Assembly (NCBI GenBank): GCA_021815785.1 | Contig: JAKAZS010000001.1 | Span: 5,599 to 69,598, forward strand | From: a bacterium | GTDB lineage: Bacteria; Cyanobacteriota; Vampirovibrionia; Obscuribacterales; JAKAZS01 | Length of the DNA stretch: 64,000 nt | Direction of reading: 5' to 3' | Part shown: piece by piece, positions 4,953 to 61,009 of the stretch | Numbering within the stretch: position 1 is the stretch's first letter | Layout: every line of letters begins with the position of its first letter | Position numbers and translations under genes: made by a program | Notes under the pieces: generated by a model | The model's database searches: none | Seen by the model: only the letters and a program-made list of their open reading frames with translations | Told to the model about the DNA's origin: nothing

Positions 4953-5032
4953 TTTAAATTTACCTTTTCTTCATTTACTGTATAAATTAACTTCGCTTAA
5001 TTTCGTTATTCAAAACCAATCTTATCATCTTT

Positions 5033-8000
5033 TCAAGAGTAAACATCGTCTGGATGCATAGTTGGTTTGTTACGACTAGTTTTGCGTTGGACAATACCAA
5101 AAATTAAAGGTACTACCATAAATACGGTTGAAGTAGAAAAAACCAAACCACCAATAACCGCTCGACCCAGTGGCGCATTTCGATCGCCACCTTCACCCAG
5201 GCCCAAAGCCATCGGAACCATACCAGCTATCATAGCGATAGAAGTCATCATAACTGGTCGCAACCGTGATACCGCTCCGCCTAAGGCTGCATCTTGGGCA
5301 CTCATGCCATCAAGACGTCTAACTTCGGAAAAGTCAACGACAAGAATAGAATTAGCCACACCAATACCTATTGACATAATTGTGCCCATAAATGACTGAA
5401 TATTTATCGAAGAACCCGTTAATTTAAGTGCTATAAGAGCTCCGCATAAAATAGCCGGTGTTACCGACAAGACTATTATAGCTAGCCTTACCGATTGGAA
5501 ATAACCAACCAACAGTAAAAATATTGATACAACGGCAAATAGTACCCCAAAACCAAGACTTATAAAGGTATTATTCATAATTGGCACCTGACCTCGAACA
5601 TTAACTTTAACACCACGCGGTGGTGTGCCTAAAGTTTTAATAGCCTTATCAACTTCTCTAGAGGCAAAACCCAAATCATTGCCAGCAATATTTGCCGTAA
5701 TACTAACCATACGTGCCATATTATAACGATCGTATTCACCCACCATAGTTCCATAATGCGTATTAGCGACATCACGAATAAACGGACCTTCATAATGCCC
5801 TGTTTTAGCTGGTGTAGATTCAACATCGTTAATTGAAGTTATTTCATTCTGAGGAATTTGAACCTGAACTTGATAAGACATACCACTATTAGCGTCCCGC
5901 CAATAGACTGGAGTGACAAACCGACTTGAATAAGTTGATGATACAAAAGCGTGGCCTAATGCGGTCAAATCAACACCTAACTGACCAGCTCGGATTCTAT
6001 CCACATCAACAACTAATGTTGGATAATCTAAAGGCTGAACAATAGTAACATCTTTTAAATAACTTATTGCCTTCATTTTTTCTAATAAGGCTCTGGCATA
6101 TTGCGTATCACGAGGGAAACTAGGTCCATTCACATCAACCTGGATTGGGGTTGGTGCTCCAAAATTCATGATTTTATTAATAATATCTCCAGCTTCAAAA
6201 GTAAAGGAACATTTAGGAAATTCATTAGCTAATCTAGCTCTTAATTTGTTTTGGAGATCGTGCATGATAATATTAGCTTTTTCTTTTAGGCCAACAATAA
6301 TAACCGACTCTTGTGGACCGCTAGTCCACATGTAAGCATTACTAATAGCGTAACTTGGAGGCTGGGTACCAACGTAAGACACCGATACCTCGACATTGTT
6401 CTTACCACCAGCTTCTTCATTAATTATATCTAGTACTTTTTCGGTAATATCAAGCGTCCGCTCAATTCGTAAACCAGTTGGTGCCCGTAATCTAAGCTGA
6501 AACGCTGATGGATTACCTGATGGAAAAATTTCAGTCGGTAAACTAGGGAAAAGAATGAAGATTAAAGCTGGAACACAGGTCAAATAAACCAATAAAATTG
6601 GCCAGCGAATTTTATAGTTAAAATGCACGACGTTTTTATATAGACTTTGGATTTTACCCATAAAGCCACCATGCTCTTCACCTTCATGTAAACCCTGATG
6701 ACTTACATTCTCACCATCATCTTCTTTATGTTCAGCATGTTTTAATAACCAACAGGATAGAACTGGTACAAAAGTATTAGATAGTATATATGAAGAAATC
6801 ATGGCAAAGCCAACCGCTAACGATAATGGAACAAATAAAGCCTGGGTTGATCCGCTCATAAAAAATGATGGCGCAAATACTGAAATAACCGATAACATAG
6901 CCAGTAATCTTGGCGTTACAACTTCTAATAAAGCTTCCCAAACTGCTAGATATAAGCGTTCTCCCTTACCTAAATGCGTATGAATATTTTCAATGGCTAC
7001 AGTTGCTTCATCAACTAAAATACCAACAGCTAGCGATAATCCACCTAAAGTCATAATATTAACCGTCTGGCCACTTATCCATAAACACACAACTGCTGAT
7101 AATATGGCAACCGGAATATTGAGAATAACCACTAATGCACTAGGAATATCTTGTAAAAAAATTAATACCATTAGACCCGTTAGGCCAGCACCGGTTAATC
7201 CTTCAAATAAAACCCCACTAATTGCTTCAGATACATAAACCGATTGATCTAATACATATTTTACACTTATATCTTTGGGTAAGACATTTTTAATTTCAGG
7301 TATGGCCGCTTTAACTTCATCAACCACTGAAAGCGTAGAAGCATCGGCAGTCTTAGAAATCGCCAGATAAACAGTTTGCCGACCATTGACCAAAGCATAA
7401 CCAGTGGGGATATCGATAGTATCCTGGATGCGGCCAATATCTTTTAAGTAAACGGCTGGACCAGACCCCATCGTAAGCGGTAAATTGCCTAATTCCTGGA
7501 TATCCGATACAACTGAATTAATGGTTGACATACGCTGAAGGTCACCAGTTCTTACAATACCTGATGGCATAATCGGATTACCTTTAGCCAAGGTACTGAC
7601 AATATCTTCTGGTCCTAAGTGATACTCTTTTAATTTTTCGGCATTCACACTAATAACAATTGAACGCTGGTTACCACCAAATGGTGGTGGCATAGATACC
7701 CCTGGTAAAGTCGAAACTTTTGGGCGTACTCTTACGTATGCTAAATCTTGAATTTCTCCAACCGATCGTGTGGGACTATCCATAACTAAATAACCTACAG
7801 GAACAGACCCAACATCAAAACGGATAACAAATGGGGTAACGGTTCCTGGTGGCATATAAGCGCGTGAACGTTCGACCTGAGCCAAAACTTGCGACATGGC
7901 ATCAGCCATATTCATTGAAGGTTGGAAATATACATCTAATACAGCGGCACTTTGAATAGACTTAGATTCAATATGATCAATACCGCTAATATATAAAAAA

Positions 8001-8215
8001 TGCTGTTCATAAAATGAGACAATGAAACCTTCCATCTGAGCTGGATCCATACCACCATATGGCTGAATAACCGATACACGAGGTACTTTTAAATCAGGAA
8101 AAATATCGATTTTCATTTTAGTAATAGCAAATATAGCCACTAGGATAATGGCGCTGACCAATACCATGATGGTAATTGGTCGCTGCATTGCTAATCTGAC
8201 TTGGTCTTCACCCAC
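5033..8215 (-). CDS. RND family efflux permease (AcrB/CzcA superfamily)
   Basis: 1060 aa with the 12-TM, two-large-loop RND layout. TM4 motif GLSLAVGILVDEATVAIENI. GTG start lies 8 nt after AGGAG (rc 8224-8228), which overlaps the upstream TAA stop. Confidence 0.92.
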   Translation of the reverse strand: MGEDQVRLAMQRPITIMVLVSAIILVAIFAITKMKIDIFPDLKVPRVSVIQPYGGMDPAQMEGFIVSFYEQHFLYISGIDHIESKSIQSAAVLDVYFQPSMNMADAMSQVLAQVERSRAYMPPGTVTPFVIRFDVGSVPVGYLVMDSPTRSVGEIQDLAYVRVRPKVSTLPGVSMPPPFGGNQRSIVISVNAEKLKEYHLGPEDIVSTLAKGNPIMPSGIVRTGDLQRMSTINSVVSDIQELGNLPLTMGSGPAVYLKDIGRIQDTIDIPTGYALVNGRQTVYLAISKTADASTLSVVDEVKAAIPEIKNVLPKDISVKYVLDQSVYVSEAISGVLFEGLTGAGLTGLMVLIFLQDIPSALVVILNIPVAILSAVVCLWISGQTVNIMTLGGLSLAVGILVDEATVAIENIHTHLGKGERLYLAVWEALLEVVTPRLLAMLSVISVFAPSFFMSGSTQALFVPLSLAVGFAMISSYILSNTFVPVLSCWLLKHAEHKEDDGENVSHQGLHEGEEHGGFMGKIQSLYKNVVHFNYKIRWPILLVYLTCVPALIFILFPSLPTEIFPSGNPSAFQLRLRAPTGLRIERTLDITEKVLDIINEEAGGKNNVEVSVSYVGTQPPSYAISNAYMWTSGPQESVIIVGLKEKANIIMHDLQNKLRARLANEFPKCSFTFEAGDIINKIMNFGAPTPIQVDVNGPSFPRDTQYARALLEKMKAISYLKDVTIVQPLDYPTLVVDVDRIRAGQLGVDLTALGHAFVSSTYSSRFVTPVYWRDANSGMSYQVQVQIPQNEITSINDVESTPAKTGHYEGPFIRDVANTHYGTMVGEYDRYNMARMVSITANIAGNDLGFASREVDKAIKTLGTPPRGVKVNVRGQVPIMNNTFISLGFGVLFAVVSIFLLLVGYFQSVRLAIIVLSVTPAILCGALIALKLTGSSINIQSFMGTIMSIGIGVANSILVVDFSEVRRLDGMSAQDAALGGAVSRLRPVMMTSIAMIAGMVPMALGLGEGGDRNAPLGRAVIGGLVFSTSTVFMVVPLIFGIVQRKTSRNKPTMHPDDVYS

Positions 8216-8227
8216 GAATATTACTCC

Positions 8228-9709
8228 TTAATGCGTACTCATACTAGCTACTTGGCTTAAAAATGGTTTTAAATTACCATGGACATTAGCTGTAGCTAAC
8301 AAAGCTTTCCAGACCCCAATTCGCGCCGAGGCTTCTTGCATTACGGATTTAGCCAATAACTGCTCAGCTTCAGCTACCTGGGCAACAGTTCCTAAACCAA
8401 CTTCATAACGCGTTCGCGCCTTAACAGTAGCATCATTAGCTGCAGCAACCTGAATTGGCATGTTTGCCGCCAATTCAATAGCTGCTTTAACTTGCGCTTT
8501 AGCTCTAAAATCTTCAGTTTGCAAACTTTGCATAATTAAATTATAGCTTTGACGTTCAGCTTGAACTTTATACAATTCTACTTTACGAGCAGCACGTATC
8601 CGAAAAAAATCTAAAAAAGGAAAATCCATAATCATAGCAACATCATAGTTTGGCGCAGACGGCAAAACACCTCCACCATAGGCTGCAGTAGATCGCCCAG
8701 CGGTATTCAAGCCAGCGCCTCTAAAATTTAGCCCACCCAGAAAGTGAAAAGTAGGAACGTACATTTTATCAAAAACATGAACCCGCGCCATCGAGGTATT
8801 AATAATCGCATTGCCAGCTAAAGCTAACGGATGTTCTTTAAAAACCGGTGGATATTGTTGCGTTAGTGTAGGCTGGGATATTTGCGCAATCGATCCAGGA
8901 TCGATATCAATTTTTTTTCCACCTAAACCAATTGAATATGATAAATCAGCAATAGCAATTTCTAACTTATAACGTGATTCTATTAATTGATTACGCGCCT
9001 GAGCTAACTGGGCATCAGCTAAAGAAGCATCAGCTCCTGGTCTTAAATCAGAATCTACCAGGGTATGAACCATGCGGTCAAAAGTATCAAAACGCTCAAC
9101 ATTAGCTTGACTGGCTTTTAGTTGTTCTTGCGCCACCACAACATCTAGAAAACCAGCCGCAGCACGAGTGGCTACATCAAGTTTGGTCGAAGCATAACCT
9201 GCCTCTGTCTGACTTAACTCTGATTTGGCTACGTTGATTTTTGCTTTATGTAAACCAAAATCTAAAGGAGCCCAATCTACTACCGTACCAAAGCCACTGA
9301 AGAAATATCCTTTCATACTAACCGATGGATTACCCGGCCCCATATTAGCGGGAAACACATCAGAAGAAAACAGCAACTGGGTAGTTTTATTATGGGAAGC
9401 AAAGATACTTTGATATTGTAAATCAGCTTCGGGCATATATTCTTTAATGATTCTCAAACGTATATTAGCTTTTGCAGCTTGAATAAGAGCCTGTTGTTGA
9501 AGAATTCTTGGGTAATTAACTAATGACATCGTAACACACGCATTTAAAGTAAGTGGTTTAGAAATTTGCGTGCGTAACTGTAATGGTCGATTTAAATCAA
9601 TTATTGAATTTTCAGTGGCAATTACTGAATTTACCGTAAAGTTTAAACATGAAAATATTAAAATAACAGTTATAAAGAAGAGTTTTAACAAAAATATTGA
9701 TTTATACAT
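8228..9709 (-). CDS. Outer membrane efflux protein (TolC/OprM OEP family)
   Basis: 493 aa with an N-terminal signal-like segment. Two internally repeated alpha-helical/beta halves typical of OEP proteins. First gene of the operon, 12 nt upstream of the RND permease. Confidence 0.8.
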   Translation of the reverse strand: MYKSIFLLKLFFITVILIFSCLNFTVNSVIATENSIIDLNRPLQLRTQISKPLTLNACVTMSLVNYPRILQQQALIQAAKANIRLRIIKEYMPEADLQYQSIFASHNKTTQLLFSSDVFPANMGPGNPSVSMKGYFFSGFGTVVDWAPLDFGLHKAKINVAKSELSQTEAGYASTKLDVATRAAAGFLDVVVAQEQLKASQANVERFDTFDRMVHTLVDSDLRPGADASLADAQLAQARNQLIESRYKLEIAIADLSYSIGLGGKKIDIDPGSIAQISQPTLTQQYPPVFKEHPLALAGNAIINTSMARVHVFDKMYVPTFHFLGGLNFRGAGLNTAGRSTAAYGGGVLPSAPNYDVAMIMDFPFLDFFRIRAARKVELYKVQAERQSYNLIMQSLQTEDFRAKAQVKAAIELAANMPIQVAAANDATVKARTRYEVGLGTVAQVAEAEQLLAKSVMQEASARIGVWKALLATANVHGNLKPFLSQVASMSTH

Positions 9710-19169: not shown

Positions 19170-20210
19170 TTAACTAGATTGATTTTTTCCTAAACTTAAA
19201 AGTTCTGAGTTGATATACGTAATTGGTCTTTTAAAGGCTTTTTTAACCTTGGCAATTGGCGAACCAAGAATTTCAATATGGTCATTATCAATATTGCCAA
19301 TTACTTTACCAGCCATGGCTAAATAGGGAATTTTATCAAGCTCCAATTCCATTACTCGGGCACAAGTCGCATCGACACTAGCCAAATCATCGCCCATAAT
19401 AATCAGATTAGCTTCAACCGCATCCCCATTAAGTGGTCCATCGCCTTCCATTGCTAAAATACCATCAACTATGGCAAAATGAGGTTTAGCCAGTAAAATC
19501 AAATCAATAATACATCGAGGAATACCACGGTGATGTAATAAATTTTTCGGCCAACCATATTTTTTGCCAGGGACAATGCCAAAAAAATTTTTCATTGAAG
19601 CTGTTAATAAAGCCCAATGATGGCATTTCATTTTAGGTAGACTAATAATAACGTCAGCATTTAGAATTGTTTTGGGTAAATAAAAAGGATTTATGCCACT
19701 AAAACCATCTGGGTTAGCTACTGGTTCAATATCATCTATATTAAGGTCAACAAATTTTACTTGTTTAGCCTTGCAGACATCACCAATACCAGTTTTAGCC
19801 AAAACAAATTCAGTATCGCGAAAATTACCAGATCCCTCAGCTACGATAATATCTTTAGCCTGGAGATACTCACAAAGTCTAATAACACTAGCTAAAAAAA
19901 TAGCATTGGTTGAAATAACTTTGCCTGGCCAATAATCAACCATATTAGGTTTAAGGATAACGGTTTTATTTTCAAGATTTAAATTGGGAAAATATTGAAT
20001 ATATTTTTTTAAATTTTCCAATATTTCATCTTCATCATATTTATGCGATTCAATTACCGCAACTTTGGATATGTGTTTATTACGATTTTCTAACTGACTA
20101 GCTGTTGGTGGTTTAAACGTCCCAAAATCTAATTTCTTGGCACGCTGGCAAGCACTTAACAAAAACGATGTCAGTAACAACTGTAAAAAAACTCGTCGCG
20201 ATTTATCCAT
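19170..20210 (-). CDS. DUF362-domain protein with Tat-type signal and lipobox
   Basis: 346 aa. MDKSRRVFLQLLLTSFLLSAC carries a twin-arginine motif plus an LSAC lipobox. DUF362-like blocks: VILKPNMV, SLPKMKCHHWALLTASMKNFFG, IVDGILAMEGDGPLNG. Confidence 0.65.
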   Translation of the reverse strand: MDKSRRVFLQLLLTSFLLSACQRAKKLDFGTFKPPTASQLENRNKHISKVAVIESHKYDEDEILENLKKYIQYFPNLNLENKTVILKPNMVDYWPGKVISTNAIFLASVIRLCEYLQAKDIIVAEGSGNFRDTEFVLAKTGIGDVCKAKQVKFVDLNIDDIEPVANPDGFSGINPFYLPKTILNADVIISLPKMKCHHWALLTASMKNFFGIVPGKKYGWPKNLLHHRGIPRCIIDLILLAKPHFAIVDGILAMEGDGPLNGDAVEANLIIMGDDLASVDATCARVMELELDKIPYLAMAGKVIGNIDNDHIEILGSPIAKVKKAFKRPITYINSELLSLGKNQSS

Positions 20211-20223
20211 TCACCAACCACAA

Positions 20224-21222
20224 TTAAGACATCTTAAAAGCATTATAGCCTAAACCAGTTAACAAACTTAAACCAGCTAAAGCCGATACATAATTATTTA
20301 AACCAAAACTACCATCTTTGTTTTGTTTTTCAAGCAAACTATTAAGCCAAATATCATTTTTAACCTGATAAATATCGTTTACGATTTGAGTTAAGGCCAG
20401 TTCCGTAACTGTAGAGCCACTATTAACATTTGAAAGTAAGTATTTAAGCGCTAAATTTATTACCGGATGCGTTTTTACATCCTGTAATGTAATTAAAGTC
20501 TCAGCTGTTGTAGCGGTAATAGCGGGGATCTCATGACCCAAGATAATATCATTGCCATAATTCCATCCTCCATGAAGACAACTATGTTCTAATAAATAGC
20601 GATTTGCTTGCTTAATAATTTTCTGGAAATATTCGCTAGTATTTTTTTGTGGCAATTTAAAAGCTAATAAATTATAACAAGTTGGTTCAATCCACTGATA
20701 ACAGTTTACATCCCAAGGCCAGCCTCGACCATACCTTAAAGCTGGTTCACCATCAATTACATATAATAATAATCGATAAAAAACAGTTGGATTAAATAAT
20801 TCATTACGAATTGCTGCAAGAAAATAAATCGCTTTATTGATAGATTCATCAATTTGCTTATCCTTACTCTTATTAAAATAGGTAAAATATCTTAAAAATA
20901 ATAAAGCTCGACCAGTATTCCAATCAGATTGGCCAATCTTATTAGCTGTAGTCCAACCACCGTCAAGATTTTGATTTTTTAAAATCTCTGACTTAATAAC
21001 CTCAATTAATTCATCAATATTTAAAGAATCAAATAAAGTATTAAAATTCAAATCAATTTTATATTGCTTAACAAAAAGCAATAATATTCCAATCAAACTG
21101 GCAACTTCAATAGAAAACTGCTTTCCATCTGAATATGACCAAACTTGATTTGCCTTATATTTCAGCGACAAGGCAATTATTAGTTTAGTTAATGAATCCT
21201 GGATTTTAGGTTGTAAGAACAT
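20224..21222 (-). CDS. Prenyltransferase / squalene-cyclase-repeat (alpha/alpha-toroid) protein
   Basis: 332 aa. Repeated QW-like motifs: LKNQNLDGGWTT, LEHSCLHGGWNYG, LEKQNKDGSFG. SD GGAGGG upstream of ATG 21222. Confidence 0.55.
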   Translation of the reverse strand: MFLQPKIQDSLTKLIIALSLKYKANQVWSYSDGKQFSIEVASLIGILLLFVKQYKIDLNFNTLFDSLNIDELIEVIKSEILKNQNLDGGWTTANKIGQSDWNTGRALLFLRYFTYFNKSKDKQIDESINKAIYFLAAIRNELFNPTVFYRLLLYVIDGEPALRYGRGWPWDVNCYQWIEPTCYNLLAFKLPQKNTSEYFQKIIKQANRYLLEHSCLHGGWNYGNDIILGHEIPAITATTAETLITLQDVKTHPVINLALKYLLSNVNSGSTVTELALTQIVNDIYQVKNDIWLNSLLEKQNKDGSFGLNNYVSALAGLSLLTGLGYNAFKMS

Positions 21223-21537: not shown

Positions 21538-21744
21538 ATGTCAAATCAAAAATTCATCGAAAATTTTATTAGCGAAGAATCAGGACAGGGTATTACAGAA
21601 TATGGTGCAATTTTAGCATTCGTTGCTGTACTAGTATCAATTGTATTCACTTTCGTAACTGGTGGTTTAAAGACTGCAATTTCGAACGCATTCTCATCTG
21701 TTGCCAGTCAGTTAAACAACTTAGACTCAACAGCATCATCGTAA
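21538..21744 (+). CDS. flp: Flp/Fap-family type IVb pilin (Tad pilus major subunit)
   Basis: 68 aa from ATG 21538; GGGAGGA lies 7-8 nt upstream. Flp motif G-XXXX-EY: EESG/QGITEYGAILAFVAVLV followed by a hydrophobic helix. The track's TTG 21514 extension is unnecessary. Confidence 0.9.
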   Translation: MSNQKFIENFISEESGQGITEYGAILAFVAVLVSIVFTFVTGGLKTAISNAFSSVASQLNNLDSTASS

Positions 21745-21780
21745 TAAAACTAACAAATAACAAAATATTAAATAAATATT

Positions 21781-21812
21781 ATATTAGGGATGGATTTATT
21801 CATCCCTAATAT
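21781..21812 (+). terminator. Hairpin terminator after flp
   Basis: Perfect 12-bp stem ATATTAGGGATG / CATCCCTAATAT with loop GATTTATT, 37 nt after the flp stop, followed by AT-rich sequence. Confidence 0.6.
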
Positions 21813-21978
21813 GTTTAATAGATAAATTAACAGGGTATATATCTAACAAATAACCAAGAAATTGGTTGGTAAGAAAAATAATTATAAAATGTTAAGAATT
21901 CTAATCATAAAAAATACAAAATTCAGAAGTCAAAAGCAAAATTAATAAAAAATGTGTAAAAATACTGTTATCACGTCT

Positions 21979-21996
21979 AAATTAGAATTCTAATTT
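21979..21996. promoter_or_regulatory. 18-bp perfect palindrome AAATTAGAATTCTAATTT upstream of cpaB (candidate operator)
   Basis: Read directly from the sequence. Lies 28-45 bp upstream of cpaB ATG 22024 and just 5' of the SD GGGGG. A related half-conserved copy TTAAGAATTCTAAT occurs at 21892-21905. Confidence 0.3.
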
Positions 21997-22023
21997 GTAA
22001 GGTTTTTAAGGGGGTAAGTTTAA

Positions 22024-23019
22024 ATGAATCCATTACGTATGTTGTGGTTAAATATAACCAGATTAAATCCGGTTGTATTAGTTGCCATAGTCTTAGTTAT
22101 GGCGGTTATAGCAATGGTAGTTACCAATAAACAGTTTAGTGAACAAGAAGATGAAAAGAATCGAGTCAAGCAAGAATATGAAAGTAAAATGAATGCAAAA
22201 GGCTCAGTAGTACTAGCAAAAAAAGATATTCCTGAAGGTGAAATCATTACCAGTGAGATGTTGGAATTAAAAGAAACAGAACAAAGTAAAATTCCAATAG
22301 ATAGTATCCAGAATTTACAAATGGCTCAAGGGCAAACTGCCAAAGTAAATATTGCTGCAGGTCAAATGCTTCGGTCTTCAGATTTTGCTGTTGCTGCTAA
22401 GGTGATGACTTTTGATCAAAAAATTAAAGAAGGATACCGGGCTGTAACTTTTGGTGTTGATACCAATTCTGGCGTAGCTGGATTTATTACGCCTGAAAGC
22501 CATGTTGACATTGTAGCTTCAGCCGGATCAGCCGCCGATACTAAAGCATCGCCAATACTTTCTGACATTGAAGTTATTGCTGTAGGTCAAACCTTCCAGA
22601 AAGCTGGAGCTGGTAGTGGGCAAGCTGCTGCTCCAGCCAGCTGTGTAACGGTTGCGGTCACACCCGAAGATGCCGACAAGCTAATTAAAGCAATAATGGC
22701 TGCAAAGCTATACTTAACCTTAAGAAGTGAAAAAGATAATACACCATTAGCTACTGTTGATGTAACTTCATTATTCCAAAAAGCTGGCGACAATGGTAGT
22801 AGCGGTGGCAGTAATCCTAACATGCCTAGCGATACTACCGCAAATTTACCTGCGCCTAATTCATTACCAGCACCACCACCAATTCCTGGAGCTGGTGACA
22901 GTGGAGTTAGCCCTGATACTGGCAATGGTGGTGGTGGCGATGTTGCTCCTCCTCCGCTGCATGAAATTGAAATCTGGTCAGGAAGCAGTAAAAATGTTTT
23001 ACAAGTACCACAAGGTTAA
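22024..23019 (+). CDS. cpaB: Flp pilus assembly protein CpaB/RcpC with C-terminal Pro/Gly-rich insertion
   Basis: 331 aa. N-terminal TM helix. SAF-like VVLAKKDIPEGEIITSEMLELKE. RcpC-like block YRAVTFGVDTNSGVAGFITPESHVDIVAS. C-terminal low-complexity NLPAPNSLPAPPPIPGAGDSG...GGGGDVAPPP. Confidence 0.85.
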   Translation: MNPLRMLWLNITRLNPVVLVAIVLVMAVIAMVVTNKQFSEQEDEKNRVKQEYESKMNAKGSVVLAKKDIPEGEIITSEMLELKETEQSKIPIDSIQNLQMAQGQTAKVNIAAGQMLRSSDFAVAAKVMTFDQKIKEGYRAVTFGVDTNSGVAGFITPESHVDIVASAGSAADTKASPILSDIEVIAVGQTFQKAGAGSGQAAAPASCVTVAVTPEDADKLIKAIMAAKLYLTLRSEKDNTPLATVDVTSLFQKAGDNGSSGGSNPNMPSDTTANLPAPNSLPAPPPIPGAGDSGVSPDTGNGGGGDVAPPPLHEIEIWSGSSKNVLQVPQG

Positions 23020-23065
23020 TATATAATAAAGATTATCAAATTTATGTAAGGAGAGACTTAGAAAT

Positions 23066-24250
23066 ATGAAACTGACAACGCTGCTAGTTTGTGATGCTGG
23101 ATTAGATAAACGACAAACTATTGAAGACCTTATCCATTCACAACCCTGGCTAGCGTTGGTCAGTACCGTATCGGGCAGTATGGCTCGCGAACAAATCGGT
23201 AGTTTACATCCTAAACTTGTCTGGATTGAATTAAGTCCAGCTCCGGTTAGAGGATTATCTTTACTAGCTGAACTTAGGGAAACATTTCCCCAATTGTATT
23301 TTTTTGTTAGTTATGATGTACCGGATCCAGAACTTATCAGAACTGCGTATCGGCTAGGAGCATCGGACTTCTTAGATGCTGAACGCTGGCGTACTGATTT
23401 ACCGGCAGCGGTACAAAGCATTCAGCTGAAACAACAGTCTGAGTCAGTTAATGTAGCAGGCGGTAAGGTTATAGCCGTATTCAGTCCAACCGGTGGAATT
23501 GGGGCAACCTCAATATGTACTAATTTAGCTGGACATTTATCCAAATACGGGGAATCTTGTATAGTAGATTTAGACCTTCAATTCGGTATGGTATCTCATT
23601 ACTTAAATCTTGATCCATCATTTTCCTTAAGTACCATTGATTTTTCTCATACTAATTTTGATGCAACATATTTAAGAAATCTTATGACTAAATATGATGA
23701 CAAGTTAAGCATACTTGCAGCCCCGCCAGAATTAGAAGATATTGGTGACATATACGCAGCGCAAGTTCAAGAAATATTATTTACAGCCAAACAAGAATTT
23801 AGATATGTCTTGGTAGATTTACCGAAAAACCTTCTTGACGAAAGAGCTATAGCTACTTTAGATCTAGCAGATAATGTATTAGTGATTACCGAATATAATT
23901 GGGCGGCTATTTTAAATGCACGCAAATGCATTGATACATTTAAAGCCCATTATGCGCAGGATAAACTATTGTTAGTAATTAACCGATCTGAATGGTTGCC
24001 ACCAGATGTTTTAAGTGAATGTAAAGCCAATTTAAATTATCCTGTTTATCACGAAATACCTAGTGATGCCAAAACCGCTAAATGGGTTATTAATCAAGGT
24101 CAAATAGCCCCTGGCCATACAACACTGGGTAAATCACTGGACTCTTTAGCTAAACGTATAGCTGGTGGTGAACAATTGCTTTTGACTTCAAAAGAAACCG
24201 AAAAAGCCTCATTCTTTAAAATACCAGCAATTTTTGGTAAGAAAAAATAA
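23066..24250 (+). CDS. tadZ: TadZ/CpaE pilus-localisation protein (atypical receiver + MinD/ParA-like ATPase fold)
   Basis: 394 aa. Receiver-like N-terminus with Glu at the phospho-acceptor position (LVWIELS). ParA/MinD-like domain VIAVFSPTGGIGATSICTNLA. Position between cpaB and cpaF. Confidence 0.8.
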   Translation: MKLTTLLVCDAGLDKRQTIEDLIHSQPWLALVSTVSGSMAREQIGSLHPKLVWIELSPAPVRGLSLLAELRETFPQLYFFVSYDVPDPELIRTAYRLGASDFLDAERWRTDLPAAVQSIQLKQQSESVNVAGGKVIAVFSPTGGIGATSICTNLAGHLSKYGESCIVDLDLQFGMVSHYLNLDPSFSLSTIDFSHTNFDATYLRNLMTKYDDKLSILAAPPELEDIGDIYAAQVQEILFTAKQEFRYVLVDLPKNLLDERAIATLDLADNVLVITEYNWAAILNARKCIDTFKAHYAQDKLLLVINRSEWLPPDVLSECKANLNYPVYHEIPSDAKTAKWVINQGQIAPGHTTLGKSLDSLAKRIAGGEQLLLTSKETEKASFFKIPAIFGKKK

Positions 24251-24384
24251 TTGTTAATTTTTTTTTATTTTTAATTCCCTAACATATTTTTTCGGCTTAT
24301 TGGGAACAATTAAATTAAGTAGAATGTTTAATTAAAAAATAATTCAAACAATTCTTTTGCGTTTTTAAACAGGATGGTGAGAAT

Positions 24385-26142
24385 ATGGGTGATCAAAGAA
24401 AAGACCAAAATTTGCCGGCTCGTCCAGCGTCATCTTTAATGGGTCAACTAGTACGTCAACGTCAAGGCGGCGAAGTTGCATCGCCTAATCAGGGTACTGG
24501 TGGCTTAGTTGGCAAAGATCAAAACACTGGGTTATCCGGAGGTCAAACAGGTACCCAATTCGGTAGTAAAGATGGCTCAACTGGGCTGGGTGGTAGTCAA
24601 CAGTCAACTGGACTGGGTGGTAATCAACAGTCAACGGGTCTGGGTGGTAATCAACAGTCAACGGGTCTGGGTAATAAAGGTTACCAAACCCAGGCATCCA
24701 AAACTGTTGGCGGATCGGGACTAGAAACTGGTCGAAATTCAAGTGCTGGGGTAACGGAAACATCGGGTCCAAGTAAATCAGATATTGAGAGAATTGACGC
24801 TAAAGATGATAGTGGCCATTTTGGTGGCCATGGTGAAAGTTCATCGGGATCATCTACACAAGACTCTAGTACCAAATTTTCGGCGAATCAACAACTTATT
24901 CGTGAACGGGAAAAATTAATTATTGAACAATTACGTAGAGAATTAGACACTTCAAGATTAACTAATATTTCTGAAGATACCCAGCAACAGGTCAGACAGA
25001 GAATTAGAGAAATTGTAAATTCTGATCCAGCCCCATTAACCATGATGGAAAAAGGTATATTATTACAAAATGTTTTAGATGAAGTATTTGGGTTTGGACC
25101 GCTAGGCCCACTTCTTCGCGATCCAAGCATTGGTGATATTTGCGTTAACGGTTGTCACAGTATTTATGTTGAACGCAATGGACGTCTCGAAAAAACCAAT
25201 GTAGTTTTTGAAGATAACCGCCACTTAAGAATGACAATTGACAAAATTATTCAACCACTGGGTCGTCGTCTTGATGATAATTCGCCAATGGTTGATGCCC
25301 GTTTACCAAACGGTTCACGGGTTAATGCCACCATTCCACCAGTAACCATTGATGGGCCAACAGTTACCATCCGGATGTTTGGTACATCTATTATGTCATT
25401 AGGTCAATTAGTTGAAAAGGGCGCTTTATCAGTTCAAATGGCTGAAGTTTTAAAAGCTTTGGTTAAAGGACGGATTAATATGATTATCTCAGGAGGTACC
25501 GGTTCTGGTAAAACAACACTTTTGAATGCTTTATCAGCGCATATTAATCCTCGTGAACGAATTATTACGATTGAAGATGCTGCTGAATTAAGGCTACAAC
25601 ATGAGCACTGGGTAAGAATGGAAACCAGACCACCTAACACTGAAGGCAAAGGTCAAATTAATCAACGGATGCTTGTAGTAAACTGTTTACGGATGCGGCC
25701 TGATCGAATAATTCTTGGGGAATGTCGGGGTGAAGAAGCGTTTGATATGTTACAGGCCATGAATACGGGTCACGGTGGTTCAATGACCACGATCCATGCT
25801 AATACTCCACGGGACTGTACTAAACGTCTAGAAAACATGATTCTAATGTCTGGAGCTGAAATGCCGCCAAAAGCAGCTCGTGAACTTATAGCTTCAGCAC
25901 TACAGGTCATTATTCAGATTCGTCGTTTAGAAGATGGGACCAGGCGTCTAACCGAAATTGCTGAAATAACCGGTATGGAAGGTGACACTATTGCTATAAG
26001 CTCGATGTTCTTACTTGAACGAGAAGGGCGTGATCCAAGAGGCTTCTTTAAATGTAGGCATGTTGGCTCAGGATTGCCACCAAAATTTTTAGATCAACTC
26101 GAACAAGAATCAGTTCCGTTTAAATTAGAATGGTTAAGATAA
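24385..26142 (+). CDS. cpaF: CpaF/TadA secretion ATPase with about 170-aa low-complexity N-terminal extension
   Basis: 585 aa. Walker [15 protein letters not shown]. Walker B/Asp box [11 protein letters not shown]. His box [13 protein letters not shown]-terminal G/Q/S/T-rich region precedes the conserved core. Confidence 0.93.
24577..24675 (+). repeat. 27-bp in-frame tandem repeat (about 3.7 copies) inside cpaF, encoding STGLGG[SN]QQ
   Basis: Units at 24577-24603, 24604-24630 and 24631-24657, plus a partial unit at 24658-24675. Copies 3 and 4 are identical over the shared part. Confidence 0.9.
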
Positions 26143-26180
26143 TAAAGTTGTAGGTTGTAATCAGGAAATACAAAAATAAT

Positions 26181-27116
26181 ATGGCAACATCAATTCCAAT
26201 AATTGTCTTTTTTATAATTCTTTTGGGTGGAGTTTTATTAATAGCAGCAAGTCAATCAGGGTTTTCTGGTGAACTTACGCGTTTAAGCAAACAACAAAAT
26301 AAATTTAAATCAAAAACCAAACCAACCGAAGAAATAAATTTATTCGTAACCCAAAGAACTAATTTTTTGGCTACTTTACTTGATACAGCTGGTTTAGAAA
26401 ATCAGTATGACAAAATGAAAATGTATTGGGGACTTTCTATTTTTGGTGGTGGGCTTATTTTTGCCGGCGGTTGTGCCTATATGTCGCCAATGCTAGCTCC
26501 TATTGCTTTCTTTTTTGGCTTACCCTTTGGTGGTTATGGCTTTATTTTTGCTTTAAAAAAAATTGCTAAAAATCGCCAGGCCAAAATGACGGCTCAATTG
26601 CCTCAAATTTTAGAAACAATGGTGAGTTCGCTTAGAGCAGGTTCACCAATTATCGAAGTTTTTAAATTATTATCCGAAACAGCACCAGAACCTATACGTG
26701 GTGAATTTAAAAGAGGGCTAGTATCATTACAACTTGGCAAGCCTTTTCGTGAATCACTTAAGGAAATGAGTCTTAGAATTAAAGCAGCTGATTTTAGGTT
26801 ACTCATTACCGCAATTTTTATCTCACAAGATGTAGGTGGAAATTTAGCTGATGTAATAGCCGAAATAGCCGATGCTATTCGCGAACGATTTAAACTGCGT
26901 GATTATATGGACAGTTTAACCTCACAAGGTAAAGCTACAGCAATGTTTATTGGTAGTCTGCCCTATTTTATTACCCTTTTAACTTACACAATGGCACCTA
27001 ATTATATTATGCCGTTTTTAAATAACTTCTTTGCCCGCATTGCTTTAGCTGTATTTGTAATCTGGGAATTAATTGGTTTTTACATTTTAATGAAAATGAC
27101 AACTTTCGAGGTTTAA
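26181..27116 (+). CDS. tadB: TadB-like pilus platform protein (T2SSF domain)
   Basis: 311 aa. N-terminal TM, cytoplasmic T2SSF-like domain (LPQILETMVSSLRAGSPI), C-terminal TM helices. Follows cpaF. Confidence 0.85.
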   Translation: MATSIPIIVFFIILLGGVLLIAASQSGFSGELTRLSKQQNKFKSKTKPTEEINLFVTQRTNFLATLLDTAGLENQYDKMKMYWGLSIFGGGLIFAGGCAYMSPMLAPIAFFFGLPFGGYGFIFALKKIAKNRQAKMTAQLPQILETMVSSLRAGSPIIEVFKLLSETAPEPIRGEFKRGLVSLQLGKPFRESLKEMSLRIKAADFRLLITAIFISQDVGGNLADVIAEIADAIRERFKLRDYMDSLTSQGKATAMFIGSLPYFITLLTYTMAPNYIMPFLNNFFARIALAVFVIWELIGFYILMKMTTFEV

Positions 27117-27123
27117 GCATATA

Positions 27124-28062
27124 ATGAGTTCAAGTGGTTTAGTAAGTTTTCTTGTATTTTTATCCGTACTGCTTTTAGGCTTCGCCATTACCAAACCGGC
27201 AATGGATAATTATATGGATACCTATTCAGTTAGGATCAAAAAACGCAATGAAAAAGAAATTGAAAGCCAAGAAGCACCAAAAGACTCGGCCTTGCTCATA
27301 CTGTTTGAAGGCCTCGGTAAACAACTAATTACCATGGCTCCATTTTTAGTCGATAAACGTACAATTGAGCTGTTAAGTTTTGCTAATTATCGCACCAAAC
27401 AACATTTACATCGTTTTATGGGTATTAAAGGGGCTGTTGGAATATTTTGTATCCTTTGGGGTGTTTCAGCAGCTTTATCTAACCCAATGAATATATTACT
27501 GTCATTTTTTACAATTTTAGTTGGTTGGACTATTCCTAATTTTTTCTTAGCCGGTCGAGCCCGACAAAGACAAGCCCAAATCGTCAAAGAATTACCGACC
27601 GTTTTAGATTTATTGATAGTATGTTCTCAAGCAGGTTTAAGTTTACTAGCTGGCGTTGATAAATTAAGCAAAGAAACTACTGAATCATGCCCATTACTAT
27701 CTAATGAAATGCAACAACTAATTAGTGATGTTAAAATGTTTGCTAAATCGGTACCAATTGCTTTAAGAGAAATGGGCGAACGCTGTGGTGTTGAAGAATT
27801 GATTAATATGGCAGCTGGTTTAATTGCAGCCGAAAGTAAAGGTGCTGATATAAGCTATCCCTTACGCCAACAAGCTGAAGCCTTAAGGGATAGATTAAAA
27901 CGTAAACAAGAAGAAATAGCAGCCAAAGTACCAGTTAAAATGGTTCCTGTCATTATGTTATTTGTTATGCCTTTGATTTTATTACCAATGCTTGGTCCAG
28001 CTGCCTTAACTATTGTCACATCACTTGGTCCATCGATGGGTGGCGGCACTGGTGCTAAGTAA
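27124..28062 (+). CDS. tadC: TadC-like pilus platform protein (T2SSF domain)
   Basis: 312 aa with the same architecture (ELPTVLDLLIVCSQAGLSL). Starts 8 nt after tadB. Confidence 0.85.
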   Translation: MSSSGLVSFLVFLSVLLLGFAITKPAMDNYMDTYSVRIKKRNEKEIESQEAPKDSALLILFEGLGKQLITMAPFLVDKRTIELLSFANYRTKQHLHRFMGIKGAVGIFCILWGVSAALSNPMNILLSFFTILVGWTIPNFFLAGRARQRQAQIVKELPTVLDLLIVCSQAGLSLLAGVDKLSKETTESCPLLSNEMQQLISDVKMFAKSVPIALREMGERCGVEELINMAAGLIAAESKGADISYPLRQQAEALRDRLKRKQEEIAAKVPVKMVPVIMLFVMPLILLPMLGPAALTIVTSLGPSMGGGTGAK

Positions 28063-28417
28063 AATTTGTCAAGTATACAATGTAAATAGCAGTCTCTATG
28101 TATCTAGACAGACAGTAATTGCTGATACATTTTTAACAAGACTAATTGGCTTACTTTTAACAAAAAAATTCAAGCCAGGATCTGGTTTAATTATTGAGCC
28201 TTGTAAATCAATTCATATGTTTTTTATGCGTTACCCTATTGATGTAATCTTTTATAATCAAAATCTAGAAATTGTTGCCTTAGTTGAAAATATCCAACCT
28301 TGGCAGTTTACAAAAGTTTATTCTAAAGCAAAGGCATGTTTAGAATTACCAATAAATTCAATTAGACAAAGTAATTCTTCAATAAATGATCAACTTAAAA
28401 TTGAATTCTTAAACTAA
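28013..28417 (+). CDS. DUF192 (UPF0127/COG1430-like) protein. The start is uncertain: TTG 28013, GTG 28040 or GTG 28052.
   Basis: DUF192-like core ADTFLTRLIGLL...SGLIIEPCKSIHMFFMRYPIDVIFYNQNLEIVALVENIQPW. Overlaps the 3' end of tadC by 11-50 nt depending on the start. Confidence 0.6.
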   Translation: MSHHLVHRWVAALVLSKICQVYNVNSSLYVSRQTVIADTFLTRLIGLLLTKKFKPGSGLIIEPCKSIHMFFMRYPIDVIFYNQNLEIVALVENIQPWQFTKVYSKAKACLELPINSIRQSNSSINDQLKIEFLN

Positions 28418-28508
28418 AGATAGACCTTGCAAAACCTACATATTGAGTTGATCTAAATAAATTTAAATTACTGATTATTGGTAAATTGACCAGCAAATTA
28501 TATTAACT

Positions 28509-29063
28509 TTAGGGTTTTGAATTCATAATCATTTGAATAATAAATTCGCCCCAGTTTAAAGTAATTATCAAGCTTAAAGCAATAAATGGTGCTAAAGAAA
28601 TCCTGGATTTTAAAACGTTATTTAAATTGGTTTTATCAAAATTAAAGACAAAAGCTTGTTTGGTTTGCATTGCTAAGATATAATCCCAACAAAGTTTTCG
28701 CCAGGGAATAACTAAGGCGATGCGAATAACTGAATAGAATCCAAACAAAAATGCATAAAAGAACCAGGTAATTAAAATTAATTTTGGTCCAATAAATGCA
28801 CCAATACAGCCCATTAATTTTACATCACCATAACCAACTTTATGTTTAGGATCAAGCACAATCATTATGACAACGGCAATAATATACGCTAAAATAGAAA
28901 TAAATAAACCTTGCCAGCCACGGTTCAAAGTATTAAGAACCAGTCCTAAGATTGCACCGCCAAAATTAAGATAATTAGGGATTTTCTTGGTTTTAATATC
29001 AATAATTGAAGCAACGATAGCTATTACAACAATAAGGACATTTATAATTGTTAAGCTAATCAT
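28509..29063 (-). CDS. tadV: A24-family prepilin peptidase (TadV/CpaA-like, no methyltransferase domain)
   Basis: 184 aa polytopic protein. Two Asp motifs in context: SIIDIKTKKIPN and VGYGDVKLMGCIGAFIG. Confidence 0.85.
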   Translation of the reverse strand: MISLTIINVLIVVIAIVASIIDIKTKKIPNYLNFGGAILGLVLNTLNRGWQGLFISILAYIIAVVIMIVLDPKHKVGYGDVKLMGCIGAFIGPKLILITWFFYAFLFGFYSVIRIALVIPWRKLCWDYILAMQTKQAFVFNFDKTNLNNVLKSRISLAPFIALSLIITLNWGEFIIQMIMNSKP

Positions 29064-31481: not shown

Positions 31482-33932
31482 TTGAGGTTTTTAAGGAAAG
31501 TGAAACATTTACCACATTATGCTTTGTTGGTGTTACTAATTAGTAATAGTTTAGCTTATGGACAGGATTTAAAACTGCGTGGGCAACTGCCCAGGCTAAA
31601 TCCTAATGATATTCAATCAGGTGGTTTACCGCTTAATCCAGTTAATACAATAACCCCAACGGCTAGTCCCCTAAAGTCATTACCAGAAAACACAAACCCT
31701 ATACCTGTTAATACAGACCTAAGCCCATCTAAAGCAACAAACCTTATTATACCTAGCAATACGAACGTGAATCCATCTAAAGCAGCAATTGTAAGCCCAA
31801 GCAATAGTTTAATCTGTAGTAAAAGTTTGCTCGATTTATATTATCAAGGTATTGCTTATTTCAAACAAGGTTATCCCAATAAAGCTTTGCCAATACTGCA
31901 ATCAGTGGTTTTAAGTGCTCCAGAAGATCCTTTAGCACATATTACTTTAGCCAGTATTCTTGAGCAAAATGGCCTTAGTGAAGATGCAATCTGTGAATAT
32001 CAAAGAGCCATCGAGCTTAAGCCCTCAGACGCCTTTGCCCGAGAAGCTTTAGGTAGCCTTTTGCTGAATCAAGGGAAAAATGAAGAAGCCTTGACTCAAT
32101 TTGCCGAAGCCATAAAATTAAAGCCTGACGTTCCCCTATTAAGGCTAAATTATGGAACAGCTTTACGAAGTCTGAAAAACTTCACCTCAGCGCTTAATCA
32201 GTTCAATCAAGTTTTACAAGCCTATCCTAACGAATTAAAAGCCAGATCACAACTAGCAGTCACCTATCAACAAATGGGAAACTATGAATTAGCGGCCAAA
32301 GAATATACCAAAGTATTAGAAACTGACAAAAATAATTATTCTTTACTTTACAACTTAGGTATTTGTTATTATGAAAACAAAAACTATAAAGATGCTATTG
32401 ACATTTTAAAACAGGCTTGTGATATTAACGCAAAAATTCCTCAAGCATACTATTACATCGCCCAAAGCGAATATAACTTAAACAACTATAAAGAAGCAAT
32501 TCAGAATTATTTAAGTGCCATTGCGCTAAAAAATGATGATCTTAAATATCATTTAAACCTAGCCAAAACCTATACAAAAACCAATGATACCACGCAAGCC
32601 ATTGAAGAATACGAAATAGCCTTAGGCTTAGATCCCCAAAACTGCCAAATTTTATTTAGTATCGGCTATCTGCAACAAACCAGTTTACAATATGATAAGG
32701 CCAAAGAAAACTATCAAAAGGCCATTGCGTTAAACCCTGATTTACCTGATGCTTACTTTAATTTAGGCCTGTTAGATTTAAAAACCAATGAATTAAGTTC
32801 GGCTGAAAATAACTTTAAAACCTATCTGAGTAAAAATCCTAAAGACAGTCAAGCCTTAATAAATTTAGCTAGGGTCTATCTTTTAGATAAAAAACCCGAA
32901 TTGGCAATAACCTATTATAAAGAAGGTCTTAGCTATAATCCTAATGATACCAATGCACTGATTGAACTAGCCAACGCCATGATTAATGTAAAAGACTATA
33001 CCGGAGCCATTCAAAATCTGGAAAGCATAATAACTCTTAATCCGACAAATATTAATGCTAGTTGCACTTTAATTGAATTATACATTAATACCAATAATTA
33101 TGAAAAGGCGCAAAATTTAATCCATAACGTATTAACCCAAGATCCAGAAAATTATGAAGCCAACCGCTTTCAAGCACAATTATTCTTAAATGAAGGTAAA
33201 ACTGTTGAAGCCATTGAAACCTATCAACATATCGTACAAATGAAACCTAATTATGCCAAAGGCTATAATGATTTAGGCATTGCCTTAGAAAAACATAATG
33301 AATTGACGGCTAGTGCTGCTCAATATCATAAAGCGATTGAATTGGACCCTAAATTTTTTGAAGCTTATATAAATTGTGCCAATATTAAACTTATCCAAGA
33401 AGATTATAATGATGCAAAAAATTTATATTCAGAAGCCTTAAAACTTGATCCTAATAATGCCCAAGCACATTTTGACTTAGCCTTAGCCTATGCTGGCCTA
33501 AAACAAACTGATAAAGCTCAAAATGAATATGAAAAAGCTATTGAGTTTGATAAGAACTTAAGCAATGCTTATTATGCCTTAGGTTTAATTTATCAGTCCC
33601 AAAACAATATAAGTAAGGCCGTGCCAGCTTTTGAAGAATACTTAAATATTGATCCTAATGGCAGTTATGCTAGTAATGCTAAAACAATTCTTGATCAAAT
33701 TAAAACGGCTATGGATAACACTAGTAACAATAATTTTACCCCTGATAAAGAAAAGAATCAGACCAATTCTATCTCCCAAACTAACACTCTTGGTGTAATA
33801 ACCAAAGAAGCCAATAATCCTACCCCCAATAATAATCATAACCCTAAAAACAATAATTCACCTAGTAAAGTCAAACCAAATCCTGCGGTAAACTCAAGTG
33901 AAACCTCAAATTCAACAATTAATCCCATCTAA
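31482..33932 (+). CDS. Large secreted TPR-repeat protein
   Basis: 816 aa. Signal-like ALLVLLISNSLAYG. Pro/Asn-rich linker, then about 20 TPR units (recurrent AxxxYxxAlxldPxxxxAxxnLG pattern). N/P/S-rich tail. Start may be TTG 31482 or GTG 31500. Confidence 0.85.
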   Translation: MRFLRKVKHLPHYALLVLLISNSLAYGQDLKLRGQLPRLNPNDIQSGGLPLNPVNTITPTASPLKSLPENTNPIPVNTDLSPSKATNLIIPSNTNVNPSKAAIVSPSNSLICSKSLLDLYYQGIAYFKQGYPNKALPILQSVVLSAPEDPLAHITLASILEQNGLSEDAICEYQRAIELKPSDAFAREALGSLLLNQGKNEEALTQFAEAIKLKPDVPLLRLNYGTALRSLKNFTSALNQFNQVLQAYPNELKARSQLAVTYQQMGNYELAAKEYTKVLETDKNNYSLLYNLGICYYENKNYKDAIDILKQACDINAKIPQAYYYIAQSEYNLNNYKEAIQNYLSAIALKNDDLKYHLNLAKTYTKTNDTTQAIEEYEIALGLDPQNCQILFSIGYLQQTSLQYDKAKENYQKAIALNPDLPDAYFNLGLLDLKTNELSSAENNFKTYLSKNPKDSQALINLARVYLLDKKPELAITYYKEGLSYNPNDTNALIELANAMINVKDYTGAIQNLESIITLNPTNINASCTLIELYINTNNYEKAQNLIHNVLTQDPENYEANRFQAQLFLNEGKTVEAIETYQHIVQMKPNYAKGYNDLGIALEKHNELTASAAQYHKAIELDPKFFEAYINCANIKLIQEDYNDAKNLYSEALKLDPNNAQAHFDLALAYAGLKQTDKAQNEYEKAIEFDKNLSNAYYALGLIYQSQNNISKAVPAFEEYLNIDPNGSYASNAKTILDQIKTAMDNTSNNNFTPDKEKNQTNSISQTNTLGVITKEANNPTPNNNHNPKNNNSPSKVKPNPAVNSSETSNSTINPI

Positions 33933-56080: not shown

Positions 56081-56085
56081 AGATA

Positions 56086-57997: not shown

Positions 57998-58047
57998 TTT
58001 AATCTTATGTATAATCAAATTTTAATAAGTCTTTTTATCAATCAACT

Positions 58048-58995: not shown

Positions 58996-58999
58996 AATC

Positions 59000-60962: not shown

Positions 60963-61009
60963 TATATTAGCCTTTAAAGATTTATTTTATTAGCCAAATA
61001 TATTTTAAC

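Follow-up and report, generated by a model that had tools for sequence, protein, structure and literature searches.

A Tad/Flp pilus operon lacking a secretin gene, conserved across the order Obscuribacterales

Positions 21538 to 29063 of the 64,000-nucleotide stretch analyzed here (contig JAKAZS010000001.1 of assembly GCA_021815785.1, hereafter the window) hold the genes of a Tad/Flp pilus. Judged by the families of its predicted proteins, this region is a bona fide Tad/Flp (type IVc) operon with an unusual genetic architecture, and comparison of homologous loci indicates that this secretin-less operon is fixed across the order Obscuribacterales. To our knowledge, such an operon layout conserved across an order was previously undescribed, and we found no published literature on Tad pili or secretins in Obscuribacterales. 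We propose, with moderate confidence, that the region encodes the cytoplasmic, inner-membrane and periplasmic core of an ordinary functional Tad pilus, and that the genes for the secretin, pilotin and minor pilins lie at unlinked loci.

Gene content of the operon

An earlier note on this DNA had read the locus as flp, cpaB, tadZ, cpaF, tadB, tadC and DUF192, with tadV convergent to them. Both this content and its coordinates are confirmed:

21538-21744, plus strand: flp, Flp-type major prepilin of 68 amino acids (aa), from sequence and ribosome-binding site
21781-21812: inverted repeat with a perfect 12-bp stem, from a terminator-like scan and sequence
22024-23019, plus strand: cpaB/rcpC, PF16976 RcpC and PF08666 SAF; TIGR03177; PDB 9gzr
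23066-24250, plus strand: tadZ/cpaE, ParA/MinD-like AAA_31 (PF13614) with a receiver-like N-domain
24385-26142, plus strand: cpaF/tadA motor ATPase, PF00437 T2SSE, E-value of 1.5e-59
26181-27116, plus strand: tadB, one half of the split platform, single T2SSF domain (PF00482)
27124-28062, plus strand: tadC, the other platform half, single T2SSF domain (PF00482)
28052-28417, plus strand: DUF192/UPF0127 gene, ~121 aa, PF02643, E-value of 2e-15; longest open reading frame (ORF) from 28013
28509-29063, minus strand: tadV, A24 prepilin peptidase of 184 aa, PF01478 only, convergent with the operon

The spacer between the cpaB end at 23019 and the tadZ start at 23066 measures 46 nt and contains no ORF, as the earlier note had stated. 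CpaB scored 144.8 bits against the TIGR03177 equivalog model (cut-off of 71), as expected of a CpaB/RcpC protein, and matched the RcpC structure PDB 9gzr with an E-value of 2e-5. The motor ATPase belongs to the T2SSE family by PF00437, and its score against the TIGR03819 TadA family model (337.8 bits) lies under the equivalog cut-off of 373. TadB and TadC each contain one PF00482 stretch and so form a split platform. TadZ was matched by PF13614 at 30.4 bits (cut-off of 27) and gave a TIGR03815-like match, the MinD and Ssd models fell far below their cut-offs, and residues 5-121 gave weak CheB/response-regulator matches; its position and its homology to comparison TadZ proteins are clear, but the signature lysine of its Walker A motif is replaced (see below). 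TadV has the GYGDVK motif and lacks a methyltransferase domain, as expected of a TadV-type peptidase.

The secretin-less layout across the order

A scan of species-representative genomes returned 23 close relatives with CpaF identities of 68-90%, annotated as Candidatus Obscuribacterales, Obscuribacter or Melainabacteria, or evidently mislabelled. The next tier, at 47-55% CpaF identity, comprises Acidobacteriota, Burkholderiales and others. A CpaB profile retrieved 80 further metagenome loci. Synteny is the same in 23/23 genome loci, which read DUF362 and a gene for a 332-aa protein (both on the minus strand), flp (1-2 copies), cpaB, tadZ, cpaF, tadB, tadC and DUF192, closely followed by tadV and a RidA gene; the metagenome loci share this layout. 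The junction between cpaB and tadZ separates the two groups of loci as follows:

Obscuribacterales-type: 84 loci with a cpaB-tadZ junction, gap of 15-460 bp, secretin in 0
Comparison loci from other phyla: 44 with the junction, gap of 1.0-4.7 kb, secretin in 44

The difference in secretin presence (0/84 versus 44/44) corresponds to a Fisher's exact p of ~2e-35. The gap ORF of the comparison loci is a CpaC/RcpA secretin (PF13629, BON and PF00263), and the eight comparison loci without a secretin match are cut off upstream by contig ends. No cpaC remnants were found in the Obscuribacterales cpaB-tadZ spacers (15-460 bp), the longest of which, in locus L010, is a tandem repeat. The synteny comparison in relatives suggested in the earlier note thus returned the same secretin-less layout in 84 related loci.

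An identical CpaF protein is also found in GCA_027399115.1, in two sister assemblies and in ENA assemblies. The Obscuribacterales-type operon also occurs in metagenome-assembled genomes (MAGs) labelled Planktothrix sp., Trichormus sp. and Chroococcales cyanobacterium (L008, contig DATNPN010000043.1; P0012, P0015 and P0028), which look like misnamed Vampirovibrionia genomes.

Search for a secretin and minor pilins around the operon

All window ORFs of at least 100 aa were scanned with Pfam, and every stop-to-stop ORF of 40 aa or more was scanned at E≤10 with a secretin hidden Markov model (HMM) built from 36 comparison-locus gap ORFs. One seed of this HMM alone finds RcpA, GspD, PilQ, phage pIV and InvG in the PDB, so that secretins of other classes would also have been detected. 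Pfam gave no match to Secretin, TadE or Tad/TadG among the ORFs of the 64-kb window, and the secretin HMM gave none at E≤10 in any of them. A rescan at E≤0.1 of the window proteins without a family produced no TadE/Tad match, and a pilin-motif regular expression run on the window returned flp only. The earlier note had reported that the operon lacks a secretin gene and that nothing after tadC resembles TadD/E/F/G; both observations are upheld, the second for the whole 64 kb by Pfam and the pilin expression. The secretin HMM was equally without a match at E≤10 in L001-L029 and L091-L170, as were precomputed Pfam annotations in L087-L090, and the absence of a secretin hence covers ~1.1 Mb around the operons (window, L001-L029, L087-L170) rather than whole genomes.

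Minor pilins were not found within ~10 kb of the operon in any Obscuribacterales locus, where the pilin expression again matched flp only; it matched in 47/57 comparison loci, with a mean of 2.6 matches. The ~7.6 kb of sequence upstream of the window contains no pilus genes. An 816-aa TPR protein (31482-33932) was considered as TadD and rejected as a conserved component of the system, having a signal peptide but no lipobox and being syntenic in the closest relative, L007, only. Because TadE/F are among the conserved proteins implicated in filament assembly according to a review of type IV filaments (PMC10191384), the lack of minor pilins near the operon leads us to expect at least one further locus.

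A diderm host

Gene content places Obscuribacterales (Vampirovibrionia/Melainabacteria), which are related to cyanobacteria but not photosynthetic, among diderm lineages. The window encodes an HlyD-AcrB-OEP (TolC family) tripartite efflux system (3666-9709, from Pfam), and Melainabacteria carry lipid A synthesis genes and SomA/OmpM-type porins (PMC4040986, PMC9388160). The TolC-family outer-membrane protein that the earlier note saw in the same window is confirmed as the OEP of this system. The case that would have undone its argument, an effectively monoderm host lacking an outer membrane, is not borne out: the predicted RND pump with OEP and the lineage's lipid A and porin genes speak for a diderm envelope. 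Soo et al. pointed out that sequence alone cannot exclude an atypical diderm envelope (PMC4040986).

Such an envelope bears on the idea of a truly secretin-less diderm Tad system, in which the filament would be a periplasmic endopilus serving as piston or scaffold, or would leave through a non-secretin conduit bound by the CpaB hairpin. We consider this unlikely. No secretin of any class was found in the ~1.1 Mb around the operons, yet a gene missing from the flanks may still be present elsewhere in the genome. The layout matches the monoderm type (cpaB-tadZ-tadA-tadB-tadC), TadZ shows an order-specific Walker A change and unusual conservation (see below), and the melainabacterial envelope could be atypical (PMC4040986). 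However, no candidate for the conduit presents itself, since the only conserved neighbours are a predicted Tat lipoprotein (DUF362), the 332-aa protein and the soluble DUF192 protein, all of which also accompany secretin-bearing acidobacterial loci; the kept docking hairpin described in the next section further argues for a partner. We know of no diderm that exports a type IV filament without a secretin.

The C-terminal hairpin of CpaB

CpaB consists of a transmembrane (TM) helix (~16-56), a D1 SAF domain, a D2 RcpC domain, a Pro/Gly-rich linker (~249-311) and a C-terminal beta-hairpin (313-331) with the sequence HEIEIWSGSSKNVLQVPQG. An AlphaFold2 (AF2) model of moderate quality (mean predicted local distance difference test score, pLDDT, of 63, and below 50 in the hairpin), used for secondary structure only, contains the TM helix, two beta-rich domains, a disordered stretch at 249-311 and terminal strands at 312-319 and 322-329. 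Every Obscuribacterales CpaB ends in HEIE[IL]WSG[SG]KK[DE]VL[ST]VP, and the hairpin is the best-conserved segment of the protein, with 74% identity versus 53% for the remainder. The pattern x[VI]E[VI]xxGxKxxxxx[FV]P is common to the window's CpaB and to secretin-adjacent comparison CpaBs, in which the C-terminal ends of secretin-linked proteins, for example PPPYSVEVITGDKHEVKNFPN and PTVEIIRGDKRTQVVVG, follow a similar Pro/Ala-rich linker. In P. aeruginosa, Tad function depends on the RcpC hairpin, which is predicted by AlphaFold-Multimer to complete the beta-sheet in the N-domain of RcpA (PMC12307814). On these patterns the CpaB C-terminus is recognizable as the canonical RcpC L3 linker and beta-hairpin, and its retention, if anything, argues that a secretin-like partner of CpaB still exists.

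The earlier note had put forward an extended CpaB as a candidate for the outer-membrane role. What is extended is the Pro/Gly-rich linker that precedes the canonical hairpin, and no domain has been added. The same hairpin is present in CpaBs that have a neighbouring secretin gene, which leaves this candidacy unsupported. On the canonical RcpC hairpin motif, the P. aeruginosa hairpin data, the PDB 9gzr match and the AF2 layout, we rejected CpaB as a novel conduit.

Stand-alone cpaB paralogues lie away from tad genes in L021 (1328-2275), L116 (9968-10942), L118 (9989-10951), L152 (1062-2021), L162 (3650-5791, a tandem pair) and L163 (3047-4009). The L021 orphan retains the C-terminal hairpin. 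In L118, L152 and L163, the orphan is followed by a convergent gene whose product (196-254 aa, no Pfam match) has a single TM segment and an acidic N-terminal region. As pointers to a second tad locus these six loci were discarded, their neighbours being unrelated and devoid of secretin or Tad domains.

The hairpin also bears on a borrowed pore, whereby the order would have no cognate RcpA-type secretin and the fibre would exit through the secretin of another system (PilQ/PulD-type) to which CpaB has adapted. The lineage-specific substitutions in the hairpin (IEIWSG versus VEVIRG/VEVITG) would suit such an adaptation, although the overall pattern is still that of RcpA-binding CpaBs. A clean loss of cpaC from 84/84 loci is compatible with it, as is the presence of several secretins in sister-order relatives, including PulD beside PulE/PulF (PMC4451040). 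Prepilin peptidases are shared between systems and secretins have repeatedly been co-opted in evolution, but secretin trees show little exchange between system types (PMC6668835). We neither encountered nor tested a PilQ or PulD gene from this lineage, and a borrowed pore leaves the missing minor pilins unexplained. We regard it as quite improbable.

Conservation of the machinery

Median identities to the window protein across Obscuribacterales are as follows:

TadZ, full length (394 aa): 89%
CpaF core: 90%
CpaB: 55%
TadB: 59%
TadC: 58%
DUF192: 38%
TadV: 33%

TadZ is therefore as conserved as the CpaF core and far above CpaB, TadB and TadC. This is accompanied by an unusual Walker A motif: 22/22 Obscuribacterales TadZ proteins (window and L007-L029) read PTGGIGAT[TS], with PTGGIGATS in the window, so that the signature lysine of ParA/MinD is replaced by Thr, and 50/52 comparison TadZ proteins have xKGGxGxT or xRGGxGxT. 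The CpaF protein begins with a Gly/Ser/Gln-rich region of ~180 aa (24385-24930), which includes a tandem repeat (24577-24672) of 3.6 copies of a 27-nt unit encoding STGLGGNQQ; CpaF proteins of acidobacteria and proteobacteria begin at around residue 180 of the window's CpaF.

These data concern the notion that the region is a dead leftover of a horizontally acquired tad island that has lost its secretin. Tad islands are often transferred and partly lost (PMC6668835, PMC10191384), and the GC content of the operon (0.39-0.40) exceeds that of its flanks (~0.30). GC content is likewise raised at the AcrB gene, however, which suggests that GC follows conserved coding sequence. In every related locus of sufficient length, the eight genes are all intact. 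Gene order does not vary among 84 loci from many different habitats, and TadZ and the CpaF core share ~90% identity throughout the order, against 45-55% for neighbouring housekeeping genes. High identity and fixed architecture mean that the operon is not a decaying remnant; as far as sequence comparison can tell, it is under strong purifying selection. We give the leftover hypothesis almost no credence, and the conservation data effectively refute it.

The pilin, its processing and the flp-cpaB spacer

Pfam and NCBIfam Flp models did not match the window's Flp. The gene is preceded by the ribosome-binding site AGGGAGG, and phmmer connects its product to Pandoraea flp genes. The protein carries the processing motif SG/QGITEYGAILAFVA, and the Flp signature of a G/xxxxE[YF] motif followed by a hydrophobic helix is found at 21538-21744 as SG/QGITEYGAILAFVAVLV. 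TadV is predicted to cleave it after Gly16 (EESG/QGITEYGAIL), which would leave a mature pilin of ~52 aa. The motif DESGQGITEYGAILAFVA is kept in all related loci, each of which has 1-2 flp copies. In most of these, tadV adjoins the RidA gene 3′ of DUF192, in variable orientation.

The hairpin at 21781-21812 lies directly 3′ of the flp stop codon and is followed by a spacer of ~210 nt before cpaB. Its probable role is that of a partial terminator or attenuator keeping pilin expression apart from that of the machinery, and it may plausibly set the pilin-to-machinery ratio. Short tandem repeat arrays occur in the flp-cpaB spacer of L026 (6313-6565) and in the cpaB-tadZ spacer of L010 (8350-8563); these arrays, which read through as repeated peptides in both strands, are probably non-coding repeats.

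DUF192 and other conserved neighbours

In every Obscuribacterales locus long enough to show it, the DUF192 gene lies 3′ of tadC. It has the same position in 27 comparison loci, and at least 22 of these have a secretin as well. It is found at the 3′ end of monoderm Firmicutes tad operons (PMC12786226). A DUF192 gene was also observed at the tad 3′ end in Acidobacteriota and in an Akkermansiaceae MAG (L059). By prediction, the window's DUF192 protein is soluble and lacks a signal peptide. A hydrophobic segment at the N-terminus is missing from all 45 Tad-linked copies, and DUF192 is probably cytoplasmic. Its presence in both secretin-bearing and monoderm loci, its size of ~120 aa and the lack of a hydrophobic N-terminus point to an envelope-independent accessory rather than an outer-membrane component. 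The earlier note's other candidate for the outer-membrane role thus finds no support, and the secretin-bearing loci, the monoderm operons and the 0/45 hydrophobic N-termini led us to reject DUF192 as the conduit.

Two genes precede flp in the window:

19170-20210, minus strand: DUF362 protein gene, PF04015, E-value of 2.2e-45; Tat-like signal and lipobox
20224-21222, minus strand: gene for a 332-aa protein with GGW-type repeats, between DUF362 and flp

The DUF362 protein, whose N-terminal signal and lipobox read MDKSRRVFLQ...LLSAC, is encoded divergently from the tad operon and upstream of flp in most Obscuribacterales loci; DUF362 also lies upstream of the Terriglobia-type tad loci L033, L036, L072, L078, L080 and L084. 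The protein may not belong to the Tad machine. The 332-aa protein gave no Pfam or NCBIfam match and has no detectable signal peptide; in nearly all Obscuribacterales loci its gene separates DUF362 from flp, and a homologue sits beside DUF362 in acidobacterial locus L078. In one Obscuribacterales genome (locus L016, 13735-15357), a gene for a 540-aa polytopic membrane protein without a Pfam match is inserted between tadC and DUF192. This protein is homologous (E-values of 1e-15 to 1e-22) to one encoded upstream of acidobacterial tad loci. Together with the glycosyltransferase (GT2) and methyltransferase genes found beside it in L072, the 540-aa, DUF362 and 332-aa genes may represent a pilin-modification or surface-glycan module of this Tad subfamily.

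Elsewhere, the window contains a DUF4350/MoxR AAA_3/DUF58-VWA cluster (56606-60316, within 55121-63961), next to which proteins of 319, 216 and 983 aa gave no Pfam match even at E≤0.1. An 824-aa protein encoded just upstream of the window (L088, 7329-9803) has no family match.

Proposed organization of the Obscuribacterales Tad pilus

In the organization that we favour, a complete Tad machine would be assembled from more than one locus. By analogy with established Tad biology, TadV would cleave the Flp prepilin after SG, CpaF would polymerize (and depolymerize) Flp on the split TadB/TadC platform, TadZ would position the machine and a CpaB ring would guide the fibre through the periplasm. An outer-membrane secretin with a PF13629-type N-domain, a pilotin and TadE/F/G-type minor pilins would come from one or more unlinked loci, and the conserved CpaB hairpin would dock onto this secretin as RcpC does on RcpA. 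DUF192, DUF362 and the 332-aa protein would be conserved accessories rather than a conduit. Precedents for unlinked or displaced components are provided by locus L056, which illustrates that secretin position varies by having its secretin after tadC, by acidobacterial TadE/G genes outside the operon, and by type IVa pili, which are multi-locus as a rule (99%).

Several points weigh against this organization. Tad systems are usually single-locus, and a clean order-wide excision of cpaC alone would be unusual. The unlinked secretin is inferred rather than observed, and ~1.1 Mb of Obscuribacterales-type sequence around the operons contains none. At some positions the hairpin differs from related sequences (W for I, S for R/T), and its AF2 model is of low confidence (pLDDT <50). 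A secretin-independent role for the hairpin is also possible, Evans et al. having speculated that the RcpC ring is closed off by it as by a lid (PMC12307814).

The earlier note had offered two alternatives, that the outer-membrane conduit and minor pilins are encoded elsewhere or that the lineage uses an undescribed solution. This was the right pair to weigh, even though both of its named candidates, CpaB and DUF192, fail. The second alternative amounts to a whole diderm order running a Tad filament without a cognate secretin, through a non-secretin or foreign conduit or as a periplasmic endopilus, with the loss of the TadZ lysine alongside. We find this doubtful; if true, such a diderm type IV filament would be mechanistically new, and the finding would be of high interest only if complete genomes turn out to be without a cognate secretin. 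If instead the locus is split, it offers a clear example of such an arrangement, and detectors that treat an in-locus secretin as core may miss or misclassify the whole order. DUF192 emerges as a recurrent, envelope-independent Tad accessory, and the DUF362 and 332-aa gene pair as a companion of tad operons common to two phyla.

Comparison with known Tad systems

Monoderm tad operons usually include tadE/F-type minor pilins. Like the window's operon, those of Actinobacteria and of Firmicutes such as Bulleidia extructa are secretin-less, and DUF192 lies near the tad 3′ end in Bulleidia, Erysipelotrichales and Helcococcus (PMC12786226). Unlike these hosts, which have no outer membrane, the window's host is predicted to be diderm, and its CpaB keeps the secretin-docking hairpin. 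Denise et al. (2019) treated the acquisition of a secretin as the event that founded bacterial Tad systems and tied Tad secretin loss to monoderm adaptation (PMC6668835), so that a diderm order with such a layout falls outside the usual pattern.

Vampirovibrio chlorellavorus, from a sister order in the class Vampirovibrionia, has two tad loci, cpaB-cpaC-cpaE-cpaF-tadB and tadE-cpaB-secretin-cpaE-cpaF-tadB-tadC (PMC4451040, Table S3). It shares cpaB, cpaE, cpaF, tadB and tadC with the window but has a secretin between cpaB and cpaE in both loci and an adjacent tadE in one.

Missing genes aside, gene order in the window matches that of canonical diderm Tad systems (Aggregatibacter flp-rcp-tad, Caulobacter pilA-cpaA-F, Pseudomonas aeruginosa flp-rcpCA-tadZABCDG). 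Common to both are the Flp G/xxxxEY motif, a TadV-type A24 peptidase, the CpaB linker and hairpin, TadZ, CpaF and the split TadB/TadC platform. In contrast to the canonical systems, the window has no rcpA/cpaC, rcpB/cpaD, tadD, tadE/F or tadG in or near the operon, and it alone shows the Lys to Thr change in TadZ, the disordered N-terminal extension of CpaF (~180 aa), the 3′ DUF192 gene and a convergent, downstream tadV.

Among the closest CpaF matches outside the order are those of acidobacterial Terriglobia-type loci (L030, L033, L072 and L078), which are ~53-55% identical to the CpaF of the window, L030 ranking first. In a neighbour-joining tree of CpaF, Obscuribacterales form a single long-branched clade; the tree being midpoint-rooted, it names no sister group, and the Terriglobia link has only best hits and common accessory genes behind it. 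Loci L030, L033, L036, L072, L076, L078, L080 and L084 share with the Obscuribacterales operon accessory genes that are otherwise uncommon in tad loci, namely a downstream DUF192 gene, an upstream DUF362 gene (six loci), the homologue of the 332-aa protein (L078), and the ~540-aa polytopic membrane protein, which where checked (L072) stands beside GT2 and methyltransferase genes. In at least L033 and L036, TadE/TadG-like genes lie outside the operon but no more than a few kb away. Unlike the window, the acidobacterial loci have a CpaC secretin of 450-520 aa (PF13629, BON and PF00263) between cpaB and tadZ, tadV upstream of cpaB and a TadZ with KGG. Given their shared accessory genes, the Obscuribacterales and acidobacterial loci appear to form one Tad subfamily, of which the Obscuribacterales version appears, from these gene orders, to be the one lacking cpaC and with tadV moved downstream.

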